Assembly: GCA_023246655.1 (NCBI GenBank)
Contig: JAHFHX010000003.1
Location: 24,875-88,874 of the forward strand
Source of the DNA: Candidatus Magasanikiibacteriota bacterium
GTDB lineage: Bacteria; Patescibacteriota; Patescibacteriia; Magasanikbacterales; GWA2-37-8
Length of the DNA: 64,000 bases
Direction of reading: 5' to 3'
The notes under the pieces are model-generated. The model did not search any database, was not told the origin of the DNA, and was given only the letters and a program-made list of their open reading frames with translations. Shown here one piece after another: positions 8,011 through 63,894 of the stretch (positions are counted from its first letter, which is position 1; each line of letters starts with the position of its first letter). Both the position numbers and the translations under genes were made by a program.

Positions 8011-8148
8011 ACAATTGAGATATTATAGATACTCTGAGAGTGGTACCATATCGGTCCCGACTAGGTCGGGATAAACTGGGCTGGTTCTCATACTAACGTA
8101 TCTTAACAATACTGTACTCAATCGCTTCAAGTCTGTCAAGATCGTCGA

Positions 8149-8188
8149 GACTTTACGAACTTTACAGACTTTATGGACTTTACAAACT
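8149..8188. repeat. phased GACTTTAYR tandem repeat block
   Basis: Sequence gactttacgaactttacagactttatggactttacaaact, periodicity ~9-10 bp. Confidence 0.8.
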
Positions 8189-8306
8189 CTCACTCCACAT
8201 TCTTCACTACTACTTTAATCCGATCCGGTACAGTTGGTGCCGAAAACATCCAAGAGGGAGTAAAAATAATTTCGGCCGAAGCAACGTGATCGAGCCCCAA
8301 GATATA

Positions 8307-12234: not shown

Positions 12235-12242
12235 ATTTTAAA

Positions 12243-12277
12243 GACTTTATGGACTTTATAAACTTTTGACTTTAAAC
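12243..12277. repeat. phased GACTTTAYR tandem repeat block
   Basis: Sequence gactttatggactttataaacttttgactttaaact, within 10 nt upstream of the start codon at 12234. Confidence 0.8.
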
Positions 12278-12374
12278 TATTACATAGTATACCACAAAAG
12301 CGAGGCTAATAGAAATCATTATAACAAAATAGCCCCGGACGGGGCTATTGTTTTTACCACAATTGCTGGAATAT

Positions 12375-25081: not shown

Positions 25082-26085
25082 TAAAATAATCGTCGTAACC
25101 ACCGCAGCGCTTGATACATCTTATATCTGACCGGCGAAATAATCAAATCAAACGTACCCGGGTCTTCAGCTACTGTCCCGCCAAACCCAAGTTTAAATCT
25201 GGTCATGCGAGCGTACTGATGTTTCAAATTATATTGATATCTTTCATTTCTATCACTGTGAACTGTGCTTGGCGCAATTCCAAAAAAATCATACTGACTG
25301 TATCCCAACTTTTTGCCCAACTGAATCCCTTCCCACTGTATAAGATGTGAGGCCATCAATTGTCGAGAGTCGTGATCTGAAGCACCAAAAAGATATGTCA
25401 ACGTATCTCCAAAACCAACCAACACCGCGGCGGCCACCGGTTGCTCATTATAATAAATCGTAATCTGGTGTGTTAATGGCGAAGCTAAAACTGCCTGATA
25501 ATGTTCTCTCGGATGGAGACGAAATCCATCGCGCTCGGCGGTCTTATGACTCAATTTCCAAAAACTGTCAAAATCTTTTAGTCTTTCAATCTTCAACTCT
25601 TTCTTCTGTGCTAACCGAATATTATATCGAGTTTTTTCGTGCATGTTGGCGAGGAGCTCGTCATTAGATTTGCTGAGATCAAGAATGGTAGTGGCACGGG
25701 GGGTGAGGTCGATGGATTTGTTAATTAACAATGAACAACTATCAATTAACAAATGTGATGGCTCAACTCTAAACAAAATAATTTTTCGAGCCAAAAAATA
25801 ATCCTTAAAACATCCCCAAACACTCGTTAATTGTTCTTTATTAATTGTTAATTTCGCCACCGGCCCAGCGGGACAAAACCCATACCTCATACCAAACGGC
25901 AACTTAGTATACACTACCTGCGCCTGCGCAACGATTTCGCTACCATCACTCACCCGCAATCGTTCAACAAATTTTCCCTCACTGTGCAAAATCTCCCCCC
26001 ATTCCCACGACTGTAAAAATGACCCGTTATGCTCGGTAAGCCAGGAATTCCAAGTTTTTTTATCATGAGCTAGATGGATATCCAT
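25081..26085 (-). CDS. FemAB-family peptidoglycan interpeptide-bridge peptidyltransferase
   Basis: N-terminus WNSWLTEHNGSFLQSWEWGEIL and overall FemX-like layout. 334 aa. Confidence 0.75.
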   Translation of the reverse strand: MDIHLAHDKKTWNSWLTEHNGSFLQSWEWGEILHSEGKFVERLRVSDGSEIVAQAQVVYTKLPFGMRYGFCPAGPVAKLTINKEQLTSVWGCFKDYFLARKIILFRVEPSHLLIDSCSLLINKSIDLTPRATTILDLSKSNDELLANMHEKTRYNIRLAQKKELKIERLKDFDSFWKLSHKTAERDGFRLHPREHYQAVLASPLTHQITIYYNEQPVAAAVLVGFGDTLTYLFGASDHDSRQLMASHLIQWEGIQLGKKLGYSQYDFFGIAPSTVHSDRNERYQYNLKHQYARMTRFKLGFGGTVAEDPGTFDLIISPVRYKMYQALRWLRRLF

Positions 26086-26123
26086 AACTTTATGGACTTT
26101 CGACTTTATAAACTTTATAGACT
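26086..26123. repeat. phased GACTTTAYR repeat block immediately upstream of the femAB start codon
   Basis: Sequence aactttatggactttcgactttataaactttatagact. Confidence 0.8.
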
Positions 26124-26897
26124 AGTCGCCAGATAACTGGCGACCACCGCCGCCGTCTCCGCCCTGAGTGTCAACGGCCCAAGGGAGCGAATGAGACAGT
26201 CAGTCTTTTCCGCAGCCGCTCGTTCTGCTTTGGACCAACCACCCTCTGGTCCAACAAACACAGCAATTGATTGCGAGACCTCTCTTCCCGTTCTCTCCTC
26301 TGCGGAGGAGAGAAGGAATCGTTCGCGCCCTCTCCTTTGCAAAGGAGAGGGCAGGGTGAGATCTCGTTCAGGCACAAATTGAGTATCGGTAAAATCACAA
26401 AAAATCTTAATCTCATTCTCAATCTTTAAAGCGTCACCTAACTTGATCGGTTCTCCAAATTCCGGCACCACCGCGCGCCCACACTGTTCACTGGCTTCTT
26501 TCATAATCCGTTCAAGACGGGCCCGATTCAGTCCGGTCTTCACGATATGCTCAGTAATTATTGGTACAACCTTCACCACTCCTACCTCCGTGGCTTTCTG
26601 AACCACCCACTCAAAATTATCTCCTTTAAGGATTGCACAATACAACGTCACCGGTCGTAAAGTATTTAGTATTTGGTACTTAGTATGTGGGGTCGCCAGA
26701 ATCTCAATTTCGATCTTAGTCTTATCCATCTTCACGATCTTTGCAGTCTTATTTTCACCCTTTCCATCGCTTAAGAGTATTTCTTCGTCTAGCTTCAACT
26801 TCAAAACCTCCCGCCACTGGTGCACAAGGTCGGGCTTACTGACGGTGAGTGAAGGTTGCGATAAATCACTATCAATGATAAAACGGTGACGACGCAT
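26115..26897 (-). CDS. rsmE: 16S rRNA (uracil1498-N3)-methyltransferase RsmE, carrying an in-frame palindromic insertion
   Basis: RsmE N-terminus MRRHRFII, and a VGPEGGWS knot motif. Contains an extra segment PSPLQRRGRERFLLSSAEERTGRE. Confidence 0.8.
   Translation of the reverse strand: MRRHRFIIDSDLSQPSLTVSKPDLVHQWREVLKLKLDEEILLSDGKGENKTAKIVKMDKTKIEIEILATPHTKYQILNTLRPVTLYCAILKGDNFEWVVQKATEVGVVKVVPIITEHIVKTGLNRARLERIMKEASEQCGRAVVPEFGEPIKLGDALKIENEIKIFCDFTDTQFVPERDLTLPSPLQRRGRERFLLSSAEERTGREVSQSIAVFVGPEGGWSKAERAAAEKTDCLIRSLGPLTLRAETAAVVASYLATSL
26285..26355. repeat. palindromic repeat element, family B (paired hairpins ctctcctctgcggaggagag and ccctctcctttgcaaaggagaggg), inside the rsmE coding sequence
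   Basis: Two perfect palindromes separated by gaatcgttcgcg. A homologous element lies in sucC at 45505-45625. Confidence 0.75.
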
Positions 26898-28656: not shown

Positions 28657-28747
28657 AGTCCGTAAAGTCAAAAGTTTGTAAAGTCCGTAAAGTGACGCTT
28701 GACCAACATTTTACAGACTTTATGGACTTTTGACTTTATAAACTTTC
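28657..28747. repeat. repeat module upstream of tRNA-Lys: agtccgtaaagtcaaaagtttgtaaagtccgtaaagt, then an inverted GACTTTAYR block
   Basis: A 37-bp block is duplicated exactly at 28840-28876. The two halves of the module form a quasi-palindrome. Confidence 0.8.
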
Positions 28748-28758
28748 TACTAATCACT

Positions 28759-28831
28759 GGATCGGTAGCTCAGCTGGTAGAGCAGGGGCCTCTTAAGCCC
28801 AAGGTCCCGGGTTCGATCCCCGGCCGATCCA
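28759..28831 (+). tRNA. tRNA-Lys, anticodon CTT
   Basis: Cloverleaf folded by hand. Acceptor ggatcgg / ccgatcc, D-arm gctcagctggtagagc, anticodon loop ctCTTaa, T-arm ccgggttcgatccccgg. Confidence 0.85.
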
Positions 28832-28839
28832 CTAATGAT

Positions 28840-28930
28840 AGTCCGTAAAGTCAAAAGTTTGTAAAGTCCGTAAAGTCACAATGCGTTAAAACTTTATGAC
28901 TTTATGACTTTCGACTTTATGGACTTTTTT
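28840..28930. repeat. second copy of the repeat module, upstream of tRNA-Arg
   Basis: The 37-bp direct repeat of 28657-28693, then actttatgactttatgactttcgactttatggacttt. Confidence 0.8.
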
Positions 28931-29506: not shown

Positions 29507-30898
29507 TCATTCAAACAACTGCGATTGTTTTGGTTTGCCCACCTTGGCATCGGGAAAAGGATCAACGACCCCATACTGGCCATCAAACCCAGGCACAATC
29601 TTTACCTTACCAACGCGCATATTCTGTATCCCAAGGGCAATATTTTTATCACTCACCGCCCGTTCAATTTCGGGTAAAGGAGAATGAAGTAAGATATTAA
29701 ATTCACTCCCTACCGCCGGTACGAGCCTTCGATATTCTATCTCTACCTTTTTACTTTTCTTCCCAGTCTCAAAACTTGCCGCGATAATCTCACGAAGAGG
29801 AACGATGTGGCGGTGAGGAATAAATTTTTCTAGTAGAATATCTTTCTCCAGGCGATCCGCCAAATCGTCCACGCGGTACAACACGCCGACCGTGAGTTTC
29901 TTCTTGCATACTGGGCAAATTTCTTTGTTTCGTTTGGTTTCAGCAGGAGTAGAGGAGAACTTACACTCTCTGTGACCGTCAAAATGATACATACCTTCTT
30001 CCGGATAAAATTCAATTGTATACAAAAACTTCTTTCGGTCACCCGTTTTTAAAATTCGGCGAATCTCGCCATACGTAATCTCAGTCTCAAACTGAAACAC
30101 ATTCGCCTCACGCCCTAAATTGTCCAGGCTATGCGCGTCAGAATTAGACACTAACACAATTTTATCAAGCTGGCTAAGCCGCCGGTTCATCGGTGGGTCA
30201 CTCGATAGCCCCGTCTCAATTGCAAAAATATGAGGTGTTAATTCTTCAAAACATTCTTCTAATGAATTATAGCCTGACTTTGAGCCAAACACTGCAAACC
30301 ATGGTGTCCAGGCGTGAGCGGGAATAACCATCATCCGCTCATCAAGCTCTAAACATATTTGGAGAACCTCCTTCCCCGAAAGTCCAATAATCGGTCGCCC
30401 ATCAGCCTTCAAGTTCGCCCCGCGATTTTCTAATTCCTCATTAAACCGTTTGGCAACTTCCAAACTCGGCGCAAAAATAAGTAAATGCAACCGCCTCACC
30501 TTATCCTTGTGTTTGTAAATACAAGAAATTTCCGTACCAAAAATAAATCTCACCGGCGTTGTCATTCCGAGCACATTCGGCAAGCTCAGTGTAAACTCCG
30601 TCGAGGAATCCATTTCACCCAAACGACCAAGGGATTTCTCCACTCCGCTTCGCCCTGTACCATACGGTACTGGGCTTCGCTCTGGTCGAAATGATAATTG
30701 ATAAGTGCCCGTCTTTCCAATCTCCACCAGATTCTCTTCCAGATGTTCCATCCACTTTGGATGCGTAAAATCCCCTGTGGCCACGAGTTGTATCCCTTTT
30801 TCCTGACAGGCTTTCACAATCTGCGGAATCTCAAGCAAAGGCGAGCAGGCTCGCGCATATTTAGAGTGGATGTGAAAATCAGCGATGATCTCGATCAT
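29507..30898 (-). CDS. PHP-domain protein of the TIGR00375 / EndoQ-like family, carrying an in-frame repeat insertion
   Basis: N-terminal PHP motif DFHIHSKYARACSP, and a C-terminal zinc ribbon CPVCKKKL. Extra segment RPERSPVPYGTGRSGVEKSLGRLGEMDSSTEFTLSLPNVLGMTTP. Confidence 0.55.
   Translation of the reverse strand: MIEIIADFHIHSKYARACSPLLEIPQIVKACQEKGIQLVATGDFTHPKWMEHLEENLVEIGKTGTYQLSFRPERSPVPYGTGRSGVEKSLGRLGEMDSSTEFTLSLPNVLGMTTPVRFIFGTEISCIYKHKDKVRRLHLLIFAPSLEVAKRFNEELENRGANLKADGRPIIGLSGKEVLQICLELDERMMVIPAHAWTPWFAVFGSKSGYNSLEECFEELTPHIFAIETGLSSDPPMNRRLSQLDKIVLVSNSDAHSLDNLGREANVFQFETEITYGEIRRILKTGDRKKFLYTIEFYPEEGMYHFDGHRECKFSSTPAETKRNKEICPVCKKKLTVGVLYRVDDLADRLEKDILLEKFIPHRHIVPLREIIAASFETGKKSKKVEIEYRRLVPAVGSEFNILLHSPLPEIERAVSDKNIALGIQNMRVGKVKIVPGFDGQYGVVDPFPDAKVGKPKQSQLFE
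30561..30697. repeat. family A-type palindromic element inserted in frame inside the PHP-domain gene
   Basis: Sequence tgtcattccgagcacattcggcaagctc...ggcttcgctctggtcgaaatgata, the same subtype as the intergenic copy at 30910-31005. Confidence 0.7.
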
Positions 30899-30909
30899 AA
30901 TATATGAAA

Positions 30910-31005
30910 CGTCATTCTGAGTGAAACGAAGAATCTTCTACTTACGCCACAATCACCACACGACTCGCATAAAAGGAAGATTCTTCGCTGGCGCTCTGAA
31001 TGACA
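30910..31005. repeat. family A-type palindromic element, intergenic, between the PHP gene start and the livF stop
   Basis: Runs from gtcattctgagtgaaacgaagaatcttc to gaagattcttcgctggcgctctgaatgaca. Confidence 0.75.
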
Positions 31006-43004: not shown

Positions 43005-43840
43005 TTCATAAACGCAGATACAAATTCCTGCGTATTAAGATGGAGTTCTCGTACTTGAGGCAGTTTGCCAGATATAAGATATTTACGAAGCAAACCAGTA
43101 TTATATTCTAAAGCTAATCGTTGTGTTTTTTGTACCGATTGTTTCTCTGATACAGCTGCACGGAAATATAAGGGACTCTTAATCTTTCGAAATACTCTAT
43201 GGATAATGGTTTGATACTGCTCACCTAATAACCAAGATATCAAAATAATTTTGTTAGCACTAAGGTCATTATGAGCAATTTTTTGTGCTACTATCCTAAA
43301 ACCCTCCATAAGCTGAGAGAGTTGCGCTGTGGCACTCAATGTATTGGGATCAATATGAAACGACAAGGCTCCATCTGGTTCCTGCTCATAATATACTACC
43401 TTATTGACGTACCTATCTTGATTTTTGGGATGTTCCTCATGAGCTCCCCAAAACGCAAGGTAGTAACGATCTCGTCCAAGAGAAACAATTTTTTCTGCTA
43501 ACTTTAAAGGAGTAAATGAGCTACTCTCTGCTTGTTGAAGAGCAAAACTTTTCAACTTATCAATTTTATCATGTAGTTGACGCATACGTACTTTAACCGT
43601 TGATTGTATGTCCGTCGATACGGACTGCAGTATCTCTTGATAGAGCTCAAAACAACGAGCAAATCGTCGAAAGGATTCATTATGTATCAAATTTTGAATC
43701 TTTTCTTGTATTTCATGAGGGTTAGATTGACTATCATACAAATCACCGGGTTCGAGCAAATTATAAAAATCATCCGGGGTTCCCTCTCTCATATTGGATT
43801 TCTTAGAACCAAATAATCCCATATATTTGATACTAAACAA
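43001..43840 (-). CDS. hypothetical cytoplasmic protein (279 aa)
   Basis: Overlaps the downstream gene by 4 nt, suggesting an operon. Markedly AT-rich. No motif recognised. Confidence 0.5.
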   Translation of the reverse strand: MFSIKYMGLFGSKKSNMREGTPDDFYNLLEPGDLYDSQSNPHEIQEKIQNLIHNESFRRFARCFELYQEILQSVSTDIQSTVKVRMRQLHDKIDKLKSFALQQAESSSFTPLKLAEKIVSLGRDRYYLAFWGAHEEHPKNQDRYVNKVVYYEQEPDGALSFHIDPNTLSATAQLSQLMEGFRIVAQKIAHNDLSANKIILISWLLGEQYQTIIHRVFRKIKSPLYFRAAVSEKQSVQKTQRLALEYNTGLLRKYLISGKLPQVRELHLNTQEFVSAFMN

Positions 43841-44801
43841 ATGGTTTCACCAACTTCACTAACTCTTCATATGTATCGGCAATCATTGCCCCGACTGCTT
43901 TGAGCGCTGCTTCCTTCTCTGTTGCCCCTTGTCCTCGCGCTACAATTGCTCCCGCGTGGCCGATGTTCATGCCTTCGGGGAGCATCTGAGCAAACTTGCC
44001 CCCGATGTAAATCGCCAAAGGCTTCGTAAATTCTTTATTTTTTATTAATTCAACAATCTCAAACTCATAACTGCCACCATGCTCACCAAAAATAATCACG
44101 GCTTTGGTTTGTTCGTCTTTCTCAAACAGTCGTAACACATCAGCATACGTTGTGCCCATGAGCAAATCACCACCAACATGCACTGCTGCACTCTGCCCGA
44201 GTCCCGCTTGCCGAATAATCCACGACAATTCATTCGTCATACCGCCCGAACGAGAGATAACACCAATCGAACCGGGCTGAAAAATTTCCCGCACTAAGGG
44301 ACCGCCGACAACTCCAATTCGTCCGACATCTGGCACGATCAAACCCAATGAACTCGGACCAACAATCCTGACTCCTCGCTCTTTCGCCGCTGCCAAACAA
44401 TAGGCCGTATCTTTAATCGGAATCCGCTCCACAAAAATATTTATGAGAGGAATATTGTTTTCAATCGCTTCGAGGATGGCGGCTTTGGCGGCGAAAGGGG
44501 GAACGTAAACAACAGCTACCCAATTGTCATTGCGAGGAGCCGAAGGCGACGCGGCAATCTCCCCGTTTTCCTCTTGTCGGGGGGATTGCTTCGCTCCTTC
44601 GTCGCTCGCAATGACAGCGAGAGCCTCCCGCACCGTATCAAACACCGGCTTACCCTCAACTTCCTGTCCACCTTTTTTCGGTGTCACGCCGCACACTACA
44701 TTAATGCCGTAATCCAACATTGCCTTGGCCGCCTTTTGGCCTTCTTTACCAGTCATGCCTTGAATGAGAACGTTGGTTTCGGATGAAATAAGAATACTCA
44801 T
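43833..44801 (-). CDS. sucD: succinate--CoA ligase alpha subunit-like (SucD family), with an in-frame repeat insertion
   Basis: CoA-binding motifs NVLIQGMTGKEGQ and VVYVPPFAAKAAILEAIENNIPL. Extra segment ASDEGAKQSPRQEENGEIAASPSAPRND. Confidence 0.8.
   Translation of the reverse strand: MSILISSETNVLIQGMTGKEGQKAAKAMLDYGINVVCGVTPKKGGQEVEGKPVFDTVREALAVIASDEGAKQSPRQEENGEIAASPSAPRNDNWVAVVYVPPFAAKAAILEAIENNIPLINIFVERIPIKDTAYCLAAAKERGVRIVGPSSLGLIVPDVGRIGVVGGPLVREIFQPGSIGVISRSGGMTNELSWIIRQAGLGQSAAVHVGGDLLMGTTYADVLRLFEKDEQTKAVIIFGEHGGSYEFEIVELIKNKEFTKPLAIYIGGKFAQMLPEGMNIGHAGAIVARGQGATEKEAALKAVGAMIADTYEELVKLVKPFV
44525..44616. repeat. palindromic element (tgtcattgcgaggag...tcgctcgcaatgaca) inserted in frame inside sucD
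   Basis: Same subtype as the intergenic copy at 36307-36428. Confidence 0.75.
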
Positions 44802-46042
44802 ACTGTTTTTGTGGTCACTGCGTTAACCATCTCTGCCAACACTTTCGCCGTCTCGCTCATACTTGTCTCTTTGGTAAATAATTTTATATTGAAATTATTC
44901 CGCGTTGCACACTCTCGCATCAGAGCAAACGCTTCTTGGCTCTCCGGACCATCGCGACGCACCACAATCGGATACGTCGGTTTTATTTCATCGAGCGCAT
45001 CGATAATTCCCAAAAAGGTTTCTTTGATATTGGTAAAATTCGCCACCACTCCCGCCATCCAAAGTCCGCGGAGCGCCGGCTTAGACAAAACAATTTTTGC
45101 GAGTTGATACACTTTCTCTCGCGGCGGATTCCCCGAATACTCCGTATAATTTGCCGGTTTGAGACCAGCTTTTATTAATGCGTCCATATTCGCAATGCTT
45201 GCTCCGCCGCCATTCAAAATCATTGCAATATCGCCGTCGAGCTCAATATATTTCCCGGCCGTACCTCGGTAATACGCTTCGCCTTCATCAATTTTTTTCA
45301 CAGCGACCTCCCGCTCCGTCGGCAGCCGCCCCATCATTGTCCGCGGCTCGAGTTGATTCCACTCCTCATGCCTAAAAAACGCGTCATCATCAATTGCCAC
45401 TTTTGCATCCGCCGCGACCCATTGACCATCGGCGGTTTTAACGAGCGGGTTGATTTCTACGAGACGGGTGTCTTCGGTTAGGAAGCAAGACCAGAGCGAT
45501 TGCACCACCGACGACCACCCCCGCCCCCCTCCTTCGTAAGGAGGGGTCAACGAATCGTTGCGGCCACTTGAGGTGTCCCCTCCTTGCGAAGGAGGGGAAT
45601 AAGGGGTGGTTTCGCTTCGCACATCCACCCACGTCTTTTCAATCTTTTCTTCCGGAACATCCTCAATATCCATTCCGCCCTGTCGCGAATAAATCACCAC
45701 CGGCTGTTTTTTGTTGGTATCGTAAGTAATCGATAAATAATGTTCCTCAGCAATGGAAAGTTCCTCCTCAATTAAAACTGCCGCTACATATTGCCCGCTA
45801 ATATTTAGCTTAAACAAATCATTAATAGCGGCTACACCATCTTCAACACTGGAACAAAATCTTATTCCATTATTCTTCCCGCGCTTACCACTAAGCACTT
45901 GGGCTTTCACAACAAAATTCTTAATTCTTAGCTCTTCAATCTTCATTCTGGCATCATCTCCACGCCGAACCACTACGCCTTTTGGCGTGACAATGCCGTG
46001 CTTTTCAAATAATTTTTTCCCTTCAAATTCGTATAAATTCAT
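44798..46042 (-). CDS. sucC: succinate--CoA ligase beta subunit-like (SucC family, ATP-grasp), with an in-frame repeat insertion
   Basis: N-terminus MNLYEFEGKKLFEKHGIVTPKG, and ...LVEINPLV. Extra segment YSPPSQGGDTSSGRNDSLTPPYEGGGRGWSS relative to the SucC layout. Confidence 0.8.
   Translation of the reverse strand: MNLYEFEGKKLFEKHGIVTPKGVVVRRGDDARMKIEELRIKNFVVKAQVLSGKRGKNNGIRFCSSVEDGVAAINDLFKLNISGQYVAAVLIEEELSIAEEHYLSITYDTNKKQPVVIYSRQGGMDIEDVPEEKIEKTWVDVRSETTPYSPPSQGGDTSSGRNDSLTPPYEGGGRGWSSVVQSLWSCFLTEDTRLVEINPLVKTADGQWVAADAKVAIDDDAFFRHEEWNQLEPRTMMGRLPTEREVAVKKIDEGEAYYRGTAGKYIELDGDIAMILNGGGASIANMDALIKAGLKPANYTEYSGNPPREKVYQLAKIVLSKPALRGLWMAGVVANFTNIKETFLGIIDALDEIKPTYPIVVRRDGPESQEAFALMRECATRNNFNIKLFTKETSMSETAKVLAEMVNAVTTKTV
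45505..45625. repeat. palindromic repeat element, family B (cccctccttcgtaaggagggg ... cccctccttgcgaaggagggg), inside the sucC coding sequence
   Basis: Two near-perfect 21-bp palindromes separated by a gaatcgttgcgg-containing spacer. Homologous to the element in rsmE. Confidence 0.75.
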
Positions 46043-46047
46043 AATAA

Positions 46048-46857
46048 CTATTCCTTTATATACATGGCGTGGTCCACAGTATCTTCGCTTGGAGGAGGAA
46101 ACTTAACCACTTCATCTAACCTAAAACCATATTTTTCTGGATTAAATCCATGTGTTGCTCGCCCAATAATTAAGGCATCCCCCGGCTGTAAGATTCTCGC
46201 CATTTCCGCAAGACATGCTTCGCGATACTGAGCCCCAGCAGTGTCTGCCTCTAAACGCCTCTTCGCGAATCTATGTGTAGACTCTTTTTGTAAGACAGCC
46301 TCCAGTTCCAATCTTCCCACTTCACTCAACTGAAAAAACTCAAGCCCACTCATATACACTACAGTCTTGCCAACGCCCTCAATCTGTGATAAAAATGTTA
46401 AAATATCTTCATTAATGTAAAATTCTGGTATCTGCTCTTCGCCAATCCGAGCAGTCTGTATTTGAGGTTGTACGGCTTTATCAACCCCAATATAACGGGT
46501 AGCACCAAAAGCTTCAGCTAATGCCCGTGGTTCTCCCGAAGCTTTCGGATCACCGCAAGGAAGATCAATAAAAGTACGACCCTTGACCAAATCTCTAAAT
46601 TTTTGTCCAAACGGAGTTAAAACATCATCGGACACGTCGTGCCGTATCGCTTCAGCCGGACGCGGCTCTTGAAAATTATAACCATCCCACTCCAGAAATA
46701 ACCTTTTTTGTTTCGAAATTGCATCAATCAAATATTTAGAAAAATTCTGAGATGAACCTACCACTTCAGCTTTTTCCCTAAGTAATGTATATGTCGCAGG
46801 GGTCCTTCGAGTTAAAAACTCTCCCAATATCCTTTGTGTCTGTCTGCTTTCTCTCAT
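46048..46857 (-). CDS. hypothetical protein (possible Rossmann-fold methyltransferase-like)
   Basis: Weak motif-I-like FIDLPCGD and RYIGVDKA. Not confidently assigned. Confidence 0.45.
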   Translation of the reverse strand: MRESRQTQRILGEFLTRRTPATYTLLREKAEVVGSSQNFSKYLIDAISKQKRLFLEWDGYNFQEPRPAEAIRHDVSDDVLTPFGQKFRDLVKGRTFIDLPCGDPKASGEPRALAEAFGATRYIGVDKAVQPQIQTARIGEEQIPEFYINEDILTFLSQIEGVGKTVVYMSGLEFFQLSEVGRLELEAVLQKESTHRFAKRRLEADTAGAQYREACLAEMARILQPGDALIIGRATHGFNPEKYGFRLDEVVKFPPPSEDTVDHAMYIKE

Positions 46858-47222
46858 ACATCATCGACGTCTATTGTAAAATCCATCCTAAACTCCTTGC
46901 CATAATCTTTAAACCCCAAACTCTCGTACCAGGCATGCACCTGCGGACGACTATAGCGGCTGGTGCCGATAAGCTTGTAGCACCCGTGCCCTTTGGCCTC
47001 GGCAATCACCATTTCGACGAGCTTGGTACCAATGCCTCGCCCTCGCATATCTTCATCAACTAAAAGATCAGTAAAAAAACCATACAAAGTATCGTCTTTA
47101 GAAATAACATACAGGTAAGCGCGCCCCACCTCTCGCCCATTCTCTTCAGCACTAACCCGTACTGCATATGCATCACGTTTAATTTCTTTTTTAAACTCCA
47201 TAACATCGTTTACGATTGTCAT
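46854..47222 (-). CDS. GNAT-family N-acetyltransferase
   Basis: Motif A RGRGIGTKLVEMVIAEAKGHG. The track extends the N-terminus into the repeat at 47217-47303; the start at MTIVNDV (47222) is preferred. Confidence 0.7.
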   Translation of the reverse strand: MTIVNDVMEFKKEIKRDAYAVRVSAEENGREVGRAYLYVISKDDTLYGFFTDLLVDEDMRGRGIGTKLVEMVIAEAKGHGCYKLIGTSRYSRPQVHAWYESLGFKDYGKEFRMDFTIDVDDV

Positions 47223-47303
47223 CCCGACCGCAGGAGGGATCTCTGGCTCACTCGCCAACGGACAGAGATTCCTCGTCGGCCGCGAGGCCTCACTCGGAAT
47301 GAC
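47217..47303. repeat. palindromic repeat element, family A, copy C
   Basis: Its reverse complement is near-identical to copy A (3836-3930). Overlaps the yvcK stop codon and the N-terminal extension of the GNAT ORF. Confidence 0.85.
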
Positions 47304-54445: not shown

Positions 54446-54566
54446 TTTATTATAATATAGCCAAAATTATTATATTTTTGCCGTGAGGACCTAGCGAGCC
54501 TGTCACAATTGGCCGTGGCGAGCGAACCCGCAACAAGAAAATATAATAATTTTGGCTATATTATAG
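54446..54566. promoter_or_regulatory. 28-bp perfect inverted repeat (ttattataatatagccaaaattattata / tataataattttggctatattataataa) with a 58-bp GC-rich spacer, in the divergent trmB-pfk intergenic region
   Basis: Arms at 54446-54478 and 54537-54566, read directly from the sequence. Confidence 0.7.
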
Positions 54567-63199: not shown

Positions 63200-63246
63200 A
63201 CTTTATAAACTTTCAGACTTTACAGACTTTACAGACTTTCAACTTC
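63200..63246. repeat. phased GACTTTAYR repeat block 13 nt upstream of the PRTase start
   Basis: Sequence actttataaactttcagactttacagactttacagactttcaactt. Confidence 0.8.
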
Positions 63247-63894
63247 GTCTCCCTCCCATTCCTTCATAAATTGTTCAATGAACAAGTTGGTAAAACGGAT
63301 CTTGTGCTGTGCAATTCGCCGAGCGGTGGCAGTATTCAGACGATCTGTGAGCTTCAACACTCGTTCATAAAAACTCCCGAGACTGCTTCCTTTATTTTTC
63401 TCCCGCTCATAGGCATATTTTGTTAATTGTTTACGCACCTTCATACCGGGGTCGTAAATCGGCCGGCCATAATAACCACCGGATGCGAACCGTCGCGCTA
63501 CTCCAATCGCTCCAAAACTATCCAAAAAATTAGCATCTTGTACAATTTGACCCTCCAAAGTACGTGGTTTCTTAGTTTCAACACCACCATATTTAATCTC
63601 ATGGGCAATATGTAAAATATTACTTTTGAGCGGATCTTCAATTCCTAAAATATCCATCATGCCAAATAAAATAAGTGGGCCTTTCTCTGCATTAAACGAA
63701 TAATCCGAATGCTCACCGAGATTGTGTAACAGCGCAGCGAATTCAATAAGCTCAAGATCACCGCCCTCTTTGGTCTGAATGAACTGAGCACACTTCCACA
63801 CCCGCTCAACATGATACCAATCATGACCGGATGGCTCATTATAGAGCTTAGATTTTACGTATTCAGCAGTTTTTTGAATAAGTTCTTTGGACAT
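63229..63894 (-). CDS. HD-domain phosphohydrolase
   Basis: SGHDWYHVERV (His...HD) and AALLHNLGEH. 221 aa. Confidence 0.6.
   Translation of the reverse strand: MSKELIQKTAEYVKSKLYNEPSGHDWYHVERVWKCAQFIQTKEGGDLELIEFAALLHNLGEHSDYSFNAEKGPLILFGMMDILGIEDPLKSNILHIAHEIKYGGVETKKPRTLEGQIVQDANFLDSFGAIGVARRFASGGYYGRPIYDPGMKVRKQLTKYAYEREKNKGSSLGSFYERVLKLTDRLNTATARRIAQHKIRFTNLFIEQFMKEWEGDEVESL

Follow-up and report, generated by a model that had tools for sequence, protein, structure and literature searches.

A probable inverted pair of intrastrand triplex motifs inserted in frame in a citryl-CoA synthetase-like gene of a Magasanikbacterium

The Rickettsia palindromic elements (RPE), reportedly introduced by Ogata et al. 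in 2000, are palindromic repeats of about 100–150 nt that lie in frame in conserved genes, where they are presumably translated as an extra surface segment, and that also occur between genes. To our knowledge they are confined to Rickettsia and have not been described with homopurine and homopyrimidine arms accompanied by a mirror-related third block. Other short, palindromic, multi-copy repeats that are non-coding by origin are the repetitive extragenic palindromes (REP) with the bacterial interspersed mosaic elements (BIME), and the miniature inverted-repeat transposable elements (MITEs) such as Correia, ERIC and Nezha, with MITE-like elements occasionally lying inside genes. The hallmarks of REP elements are RAYT transposases and a conserved 5' tetranucleotide, those of MITEs a link to transposases and duplicated target sites. 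Here we describe an element that lies in frame inside a SucC-like gene of a Candidatus Magasanikiibacteriota bacterium, a member of the candidate phyla radiation (CPR; Patescibacteria). The DNA analysed, which we call the window, is a stretch of 64,000 nt of contig JAHFHX010000003.1 (assembly GCA_023246655.1, positions 24,875 to 88,874). An initial annotation had regarded the element as RPE-like; taking the evidence as a whole, we consider its best explanation to be an inverted pair of class II purine-motif intrastrand triplex motifs, and judge this identification to be probable.

Class II purine-motif intrastrand triplex motifs were described as a class by Holder et al. 2015 (PMC4666352), and are defined by a pyrimidine-rich block on the 5' side, the purine block that complements it by Watson-Crick pairing, and a reverse-Hoogsteen block on the 3' side that mirrors the purine one, with G standing for G and A or T standing for A. 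According to that paper, the best-known member is BoxC of E. coli, which later became the PIT elements (Hoyne et al. 2000) and then TMECO; it also cites earlier work in which PIT elements had neither promoter nor terminator activity in E. coli and blocked DNA polymerase in vitro. The TMECO consensus is CCCTCNCCC N3-6 GGGNGAGGG N3 GGGNGAGGG, and E. coli K-12 carries 23 copies, all of them intergenic, among which are five inverted pairs (PMC4666352). The isolated single strand of TMECO forms a triplex by circular dichroism and nuclear magnetic resonance, and more rearrangement was observed around TMECO among E. coli strains, pointing to local genome instability (PMC4666352).

The initial annotation had drawn attention to two 21-nt palindromes in the SucC-like gene, and both are present exactly where it placed them (coordinates of all features are collected in Table 1). 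The two, CCCCTCCTTCGTAAGGAGGGG and CCCCTCCTTGCGAAGGAGGGG, are nearly identical to each other and are wholly contained in the minus-strand open reading frame (ORF), whose translation includes YSPPSQGGDTSSGRNDSLTPPYEGGGRGWSS. The palindrome pattern CCCCTCCTTNNNAAGGAGGGG found 0 matches in 100 dinucleotide-preserving shuffles of the window. Each palindrome is a hairpin with an all-pyrimidine 5' arm, CCCCTCCTT, and an all-purine 3' arm, AAGGAGGGG. We noted that on the same strand the purine arm is followed, after 3–5 nt, by its own mirror image, in which T takes the place of A. With this third arm lying antiparallel to the purine arm in the reverse-Hoogsteen manner, triads of G on G:C and of T on A:T are possible along the stem. 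Our own scan for such three-block arrangements used rules like those of the ITxF program, whose limits are a stem of 6–15 nt, in which a single mismatch is tolerated, and loops of 1–6 nt (PMC4666352). The sucC motifs lie within these sizes, having stems of 9 nt and loops of 3 and 5 nt on the plus strand and of 3 and 4 nt on the minus strand. Applied to the 64-kb window, the scan recovered exactly four motifs of this kind, two each in sucC and rsmE, while 20 shuffles of the window yielded none. It is on account of the third block that we assign the element to the intrastrand triplex motifs, as an inverted pair, and not to the relatives of the Rickettsia RPE.

On the coding strand the complete element consists of the outer arm ACCACCCC, a ttat linker, a hairpin, a middle segment containing the small palindrome CAACGAATCGTTG, the other hairpin, a ggcg linker and the outer arm GGGGTGGT, the two outer arms forming terminal inverted repeats. 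The peptide corresponding to it is TTPYSPPSQGGDTSSGRNDSLTPPYEGGGRGWS, at about residues 145–178. Since the two hairpins are palindromes of almost the same sequence, the element can also be folded in its entirety as one long hairpin, with a predicted energy of -77.2 kcal/mol (z -5.5) as RNA and of -39.5 kcal/mol (z -6.1) as DNA. The GAATCG core of the central palindrome is common to the sucC element, the rsmE copy and one sucC ortholog (locus L134), and neither palindrome nor core recurred in any of 49 hairpin pairs from other genomes. The "family B" of the initial annotation, which was built around the GAATCGTT spacer, is therefore not widespread as a family. A second assembly record (L001) carries an identical gene, with a single mismatch over 14,500 nt, and the element is thus not a one-off assembly glitch.

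The copy in rsmE, which had been pointed out earlier as being of the same type, indeed has the same architecture of two inverted triplex motifs. In it all three blocks have changed together, AGGAGAGG being matched by GGTGAGAT and AGGAGAGA by AGAGAGGT. An alignment to solved RsmE structures in the PDB places about 24 extra residues at the insertion site, and both this element and the sucC element lie inside ORFs that have Pfam domains on either side. A concerted change of this kind is not limited to the window. In loci from other genomes the third arm covaries with the hairpin arms, giving combinations such as AAGGGGAGG with GGTGGGGTA and AAAGGGGGA with AGGGGGATT, and TMECO-type arms (GGGAGAGGG with GGGTGAGGG) stand beside window-type arms among the loci that were fetched. 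At the orthologous sucC site itself, locus L131 has the motif CCCCCTCTT / AAGAGGGGG / GGGGGAGTT, further orthologs have CCCTCCCC / GGGGAGGG / GGGTGGGG, and another variant has arms made of runs of C and G. To quantify this, we counted hairpin-strands with a matching mirror in their own 3' flank: 60 of 150 had one (38 arm types other than that of the query), compared with a mean of 12.5 (sd 3.3, maximum 28) when flanks were swapped among hairpins with other arms in 500 permutations. Covariation as a mirror is what a triplex predicts; nothing of the kind is required of a simple terminal inverted repeat.

We also observed a likeness at the level of codons between the window gene and its carriers in two other genomes. 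At identical residues, the codons are identical to those of L004 in 18 of 20 cases within the insert and in 140 of 273 in the rest of the gene; the corresponding figures for L003 are 14 of 21 and 124 of 270. Either constraint at the nucleotide level or a more recent origin of the insert fits these figures.

The protein into which the element is inserted combines the Pfam domains ATP-grasp_2 and Citrate_bind, the latter being the citrate-binding domain of ATP-citrate lyase. Its best match in the PDB is the large subunit of the Hydrogenobacter citryl-CoA synthetase (6hxq_B, E=3.7e-66), which ranks before the beta chains of succinyl-CoA synthetase, and several orthologs are named citryl-CoA synthetase large subunit by JGI. 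The earlier identification as SucC thus holds insofar as the protein is SucC-like, but these matches place it nearer to the citryl-CoA synthetase large subunit (CcsA), and "sucC" is an approximate name. The named homologs are nearly all from Candidatus Magasanikbacteria (Patescibacteria/CPR). Orthologs have a modal length of 380–386 aa, and the window protein has 414. In the closest orthologs, P0002 (380 aa, 84% identical to the window protein in the multiple alignment) and P0008, the site is occupied by a loop of 12 residues, QEKIQAVVPLAQ, which fits the family consensus xEKIxxxxPxAQ. The window protein has 39 residues here, a net gain of 27. The ortholog alignments show that the element is missing from P0002 and its locus L002 and that it has partly replaced the native loop in the window protein, bearing out the proposal of an in-frame insertion of palindromic DNA in a conserved gene. 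The initial annotation had argued for the insertion from its absence in the E. coli layout. That argument fails: in E. coli SucC and in Hydrogenobacter CcsA the stretch between the conserved blocks is about as long as in the window protein, so that the valid comparison is with the Magasanikbacteria orthologs. Asking whether the length of the element is a multiple of three is an ill-posed test for an element of 97 nt; the frame depends on the net change alone, here a gain of 27 codons. In an AlphaFold2 model built with 50 orthologs (mean pLDDT 84.6), the insert falls between a strand (residues 134–138) and a helix (176–189), with no secondary structure at 139–175 and with pLDDT below 50 at residues 154–173. 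The insert is accordingly predicted to be a disordered loop.

To gauge how far the module extends beyond this lineage, the bare 21-nt hairpin was searched for in one genome per species, 596 Gb in all. At least 120 loci were recovered, compared with about 9–17 expected by chance. Among the matches listed, to which the counts given here and in the next paragraph refer, at least 18 phyla carry the hairpin, usually with the third block. They include Chlamydiota, SAR324, Bacteroidota (with the cultured Hymenobacter and Robertkochia), Gamma- and Betaproteobacteria (with Thiomargarita), Desulfuromonadales, Omnitrophica, Calditrichaeota, Acidobacteriota, Nitrospirota, Nitrospinota, Chloroflexota, Ignavibacteria, Planctomycetota, Armatimonadota, Verrucomicrobiota, Marinimicrobia and Poribacteria, and 11 loci are from CPR lineages. 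Of the 145 hairpin copies, 128 have the third block or its complement no more than 70 nt away, mostly at a distance of 3 nt, against a background rate of 1.6% per side. In a second class of copies the linker is itself a small variable hairpin. The architectures comprise single motifs, one hairpin between both outer arms, inverted pairs and tandem arrays. One such array, in a Thiomargarita metagenome-assembled genome (MAG; L073, 7048–7312), has a period of 41 nt and at least five consecutive units, which suggests amplification via slippage or recombination rather than transposition. A pattern that had been tried on metagenomes for "family B" (GGAGGGG..GAATCG..CCCCTCC) proved too loose and was discarded, only 12 of its 122 matches lying beside a real hairpin and 2 having the full architecture. 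Rfam returned no family in the window at permissive thresholds, nor in 15 other loci at gathering thresholds apart from an unrelated group II intron. The latter is a domain of RF02005 (73 bits) in a Contendobacter MAG (L040, 1771–2041), about 3.6 kb from a copy of the triplex motif and probably unrelated to it.

The majority of the copies are intergenic, and 34 of 145 lie in long stop-free frames, some of which are spurious ones in GC-rich DNA. When ten intragenic copies were checked with Pfam, the frame of the module carried Pfam domains in all ten, usually on both sides. Copies elsewhere are hence both intergenic and intragenic, and not restricted to intergenic DNA in the way that would have made the coding cases coincidental. 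The genes concerned in the CPR encode an RNase J-like metallo-beta-lactamase (Magasanikbacteria), MgsA/RarA (Patescibacteria), Lgt (Andersenbacteria), UDP-glucose dehydrogenase (Patescibacteria) and TsaE (Giovannonibacteria). Other genes with the module encode a GT2 glycosyltransferase (Nitrospinota), FemAB and a PQQ propeller (Phycisphaera), and, in Chloracidobacterium, an ornithine/arginine decarboxylase and a spermidine synthase. Positions inside Pfam-confirmed genes are seen above all in the CPR. In the CPR loci 5–6 of 13 hairpins are intragenic, and in the window both elements are. Across genes the hairpin is read in all three frames, as PLLxKEG, PSLxRRG and PPxxGG, and the rsmE copy is read in a different frame from the sucC copy; therefore the conserved unit is the DNA and not the peptide. 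Single motifs in Pfam-confirmed genes lie on the sense strand in five of six cases (L045, L104, L085, L116 and L054, with L041 as the sixth), a bias that is not significant.

The loop of the SucC-like protein is a hot spot for insertions. Of the 120 best orthologs, about 40 show additional residues in the same block of alignment columns as the window insert, these belonging to several repeat families, and more of the 120 have such residues in the adjoining blocks. The hot spot covers alignment columns 178–267; at a second one, columns 314–330, five orthologs carry peptides of the PSTSSGQ type. Among the DNA loci, L003 and L004 have the same motif pair as the window, and L131, L132, L133 and L134 have other variants. 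In every carrier examined the element starts directly after the same R-x-(E/N) codons.

In its three-block class II design, with a loop of 3–6 nt, a linker of about 3 nt, a G/T mirror arm and 9-nt stems, the element agrees with BoxC/PIT/TMECO, and it shares with them G/C-richness, the presence of multiple copies, frequent inverted pairs on opposite strands and, as far as the 8-kb surroundings of 120 loci go, the want of an associated transposase. Unlike them, it is found in a CPR host and not in a proteobacterium or cyanobacterium, and its module is almost the same in at least 18 phyla. With the RPE it shares the form of a palindrome, here of 97 nt, in frame in a conserved gene, where it is presumably translated with a net gain of 27 codons, and the occurrence of further copies between genes. 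Host clade and cross-phylum spread are different, the Magasanikbacteria host by itself placing the element outside the RPE; the distinction is drawn from the descriptions of the two. The earlier proposal of a genome-wide RPE-like phenomenon hence stands as regards palindromic repeats in frame in genes, and gives way as regards identity, the elements probably being, by their sequence design, of the triplex motif class and the same module recurring in at least 18 phyla. Eukaryotic H-DNA mirror repeats offer a further parallel, in having homopurine/homopyrimidine tracts, mirror symmetry, triplex potential and a link to polymerase stalling and instability. However, H-DNA arises from duplex under supercoiling and has two blocks, whereas three blocks on a single strand can fold alone. 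In the literature searched we found nothing relevant on RPE-like or palindromic insertions in Patescibacteria, or under the sequence words of the element. What is new relative to PMC4666352 and the other literature searched is the near-unchanged variant in at least 18 phyla, the covariation of the three blocks, and the in-frame copies in conserved enzymes of the CPR and several other phyla.

A path by which such copies might come to lie in genes can be outlined. When the DNA is single-stranded, during replication or as the non-template strand of a transcription bubble, each half of the element would form a hairpin with the third arm lying along its purine arm, and the inverted pair could alternatively be extruded as one long hairpin or cruciform. 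According to the TMECO literature (PMC4666352), such structures may stall polymerases and provoke local insertions, deletions or replacement. Copies would then arise or be replaced at many sites, with selection removing those that break the frame or the fold. Survivors in the compact genomes of the CPR would be in-frame copies in tolerant surface loops, translated as a disordered peptide rich in Pro, Gly and Ser. Nothing that we found points to a transposase in the making of copies. A more far-reaching version of this scenario would regard the module of about 33 nt, CCCCTCCTT-NNN-AAGGAGGGG-NNN-GGGGTGGTT, as a pan-bacterial element that propagates or regenerates itself through single-strand structure without a transposase and has repeatedly been fixed in frame in CPR enzymes. 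We offer this version tentatively, and regard it as doubtful.

The most serious rival holds that this is a conventional MITE- or REP-like element, moved by a transposase encoded elsewhere, as is assumed for the RPE, with an incidental triplex potential. Like REP/BIME and MITEs, the element is short, palindromic, multi-copy and non-coding by origin; its outer inverted arms enclose it, its many copies in many phyla suggest horizontal spread, and the tandem arrays in Thiomargarita, together with the different variants seen in the same sucC loop across lineages whose carriers are not monophyletic, could also be so understood. The usual companions of such elements were however not seen at the copies examined. 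No transposase-like family recurs within about 4 kb of the 120 loci (stretches of 8 kb), where only housekeeping families do, and neither the window copy nor the complete pairs elsewhere show direct repeats at their ends that would indicate duplicated targets, with the empty site in L002 being too diverged to give exact junctions. A GTAG-type 5' tetranucleotide was not seen in the flanks of the 145 hairpins, which show the ACCACCCC/GGGGTGGT block instead. Just six viral contigs carry the module, and BLAST against plasmids and phages gave no match, though its low-complexity filter may hide short ones. Moreover, unpaired modules keep the third arm without having an inverted partner, the arm covaries as a mirror and not as a complement, and no link to mobile elements was found for TMECO (PMC4666352). 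On balance we think a transposase-driven origin unlikely.

It is also conceivable that the element acts within the transcript, where a very stable hairpin could slow ribosomes, protect the messenger RNA or tune the two-gene operon. The stability of the fold of the coding-strand RNA given above speaks for this, as do arms that hold a Shine-Dalgarno-like AAGGAGG and its complement CCTCCTT, and, for what a non-significant bias is worth, the sense orientation of most single motifs in genes. Yet most copies are intergenic and they occur in either orientation, Rfam has no counterpart in the window or the 15 other loci, and in single modules the third arm is conserved and covaries despite having no Watson-Crick partner. 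Purine-motif triplexes are in addition reported not to form in RNA, and PIT elements lacked promoter and terminator activity in E. coli according to the same source (PMC4666352). A role at the RNA level is in our view improbable. The variable length of the loop in many orthologs might finally be taken to mean that it is merely a native low-complexity linker of the lineage, with coincidental palindromes and no insertion. This we find hardly credible, given the failure of the palindrome pattern to appear in shuffles, the same 21-nt hairpin and flanking block at more than 120 loci of other phyla, the different frame of the rsmE copy, and a conservation of synonymous sites that exceeds that seen elsewhere in the gene.

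Several observations weigh against the identification as a pair of triplex motifs, or against the history sketched for it. For TMECO the triplex was demonstrated with isolated single strands only: in vivo footprinting with dimethyl sulfate was unsupportive, and double-stranded TMECO behaved as duplex (PMC4666352). The arms found here (CCCCTCCTT/AAGGAGGGG/GGGGTGGTT) differ from those of TMECO (CCCTCNCCC/GGGNGAGGG/GGGNGAGGG), whose strict consensus this element does not match, and the copies are in frame inside genes, whereas TMECO is always intergenic in E. coli K-12. For the sucC copy taken alone a triplex is not needed, as the outer arms of the inverted pair can pair together. The high identity at synonymous sites could reflect recent independent insertion or gene conversion and not structural constraint. 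That the insert is translated is deduced from its frame and length only. We had considered that composition alone might leave the module stop-free in all six frames, but dropped this as an explanation, since it is hardly the case, the module having 4.5 open frames where random 33-mers have 4.26. As to history, a rough neighbour-joining tree, in which carriers of the window-type element are not monophyletic, argues for several gains at the sucC loop, and the joint distribution of the sucC insertion and a separate one in sucD, both of which are common to the window, L004 and L131 and absent from the closer relative L002, argues for shared ancestry or recombination; repeated gains, recombination and loss are the candidate histories.

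Table 1. Positions of the sucC element, its parts and other repeats in the 64-kb window
Feature	Position	Strand	Details
Host gene, ATP-grasp subunit, SucC-like, best described as CcsA-like	44798..46042	minus	414 aa
Whole inserted element	45514..45610		97 nt; from outer arm ACCACCCC to GGGGTGGT, coding strand
Palindrome CCCCTCCTTCGTAAGGAGGGG	45526..45546		21 nt
Palindrome CCCCTCCTTGCGAAGGAGGGG	45577..45597		21 nt
Triplex motif 1 (class II)	45577..45611	plus	window scan; 9/9 triads fit
Motif 1, pyrimidine arm CCCCTCCTT	45577-45585	plus	followed by loop GCG
Motif 1, purine arm AAGGAGGGG	45589-45597	plus	followed by linker AATAA
Motif 1, third arm GGGGTGGTT	45603-45611	plus	
Triplex motif 2 (class II)	45513..45546	minus (coding strand)	window scan; 8/9 triads fit
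Motif 2, pyrimidine arm CCCCTCCTT	45546-45538	minus	followed by loop ACG
Motif 2, purine arm AAGGAGGGG	45534-45526	minus	followed by linker GGCG
Motif 2, third arm GGGGTGGTC	45521-45513	minus	
Terminal inverted repeat ACCACCCC	45514-45521		
Terminal inverted repeat GGGGTGGT	45603-45610		
Central small palindrome CAACGAATCGTTG	45548..45560		between the two triplex motifs
Second element, same architecture, inside rsmE (gene 26115-26897, minus strand)	26277..26362		two inverted triplex motifs
Different repeat, ends GTCATTGCGAGCG...CTCGCAATGAC, in frame in sucD-like gene (43833-44801)	~44526..44615	minus	90 nt
Copies of end motif GTCATYSCGAGCG	3837, 7981, 16420, 30561, 30992, 44603, 47218, 47291		
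AT-rich repeats of GACTTTAYR	8141-8203, 12235-12279, 26078-26122, 28657-28879, 63208-63252		9-nt unit, direct and inverted
AT-rich inverted repeat	54451-54478 / 54538-54565		perfect, 28 nt, arms 59 nt apart
ORF between acetyltransferase gene and sucC-like gene	46048-46857	minus	269 aa

The neighbouring sucD-like gene contains the other insertion just mentioned, confirming the earlier claim that both subunits of the enzyme carry insertions of different repeat families. The sucD repeat is not part of the triplex-motif element but belongs to a second GC-rich palindromic family. The end motif of this family, GTCATYSCGAGCG, occurs 8 times in the window, where 0.22 would be expected. One copy is that in frame in sucD, another falls within an ORF of 476 aa (29507-30937), a further two lie at the ends of genes (about 47218-47303) and three are intergenic. 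Thus, several GC-rich palindromic repeat families lie in frame in genes of this genome. The AT-rich repeats built on GACTTTAYR are clustered and apparently intergenic, and include two 40-nt copies that are 98% identical and 183 nt apart (28657 and 28840).

With regard to the gene neighborhood, the sucCD pair as a whole resembles citryl-CoA synthetase (CcsA/CcsB-like) in the window (44798-46042). In relatives (L131, 12233-12979, and L004, 5891-6112) a short gene with a Citrate_synt domain, possibly a citryl-CoA lyase, lies just downstream of the pair. There are thus hints of a two-step cleavage or synthesis of citrate in Magasanikbacteria. The 269-aa ORF beside the sucC-like gene has no Pfam hits on record and is not present in the otherwise syntenic loci L002, L131 and L132.

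Intrastrand triplex motifs have so far been treated as intergenic curiosities of E. coli and cyanobacteria without an established function. If our identification is correct, the class would extend across phyla and bear directly on the sequences of proteins, and orthologs with and without the element would provide natural test cases for the formation of the structure in the cell and for its origin. In metagenome-predicted proteins, many of the lineage-specific loops rich in Pro and Gly may be repeats that are translated, with consequences for alignments, phylogenies and predicted structures. Were the pan-bacterial version also to hold, the module would be a general source of new disordered loops in proteins and of hot spots at which insertions recur, the loop of CcsA/SucC being one.

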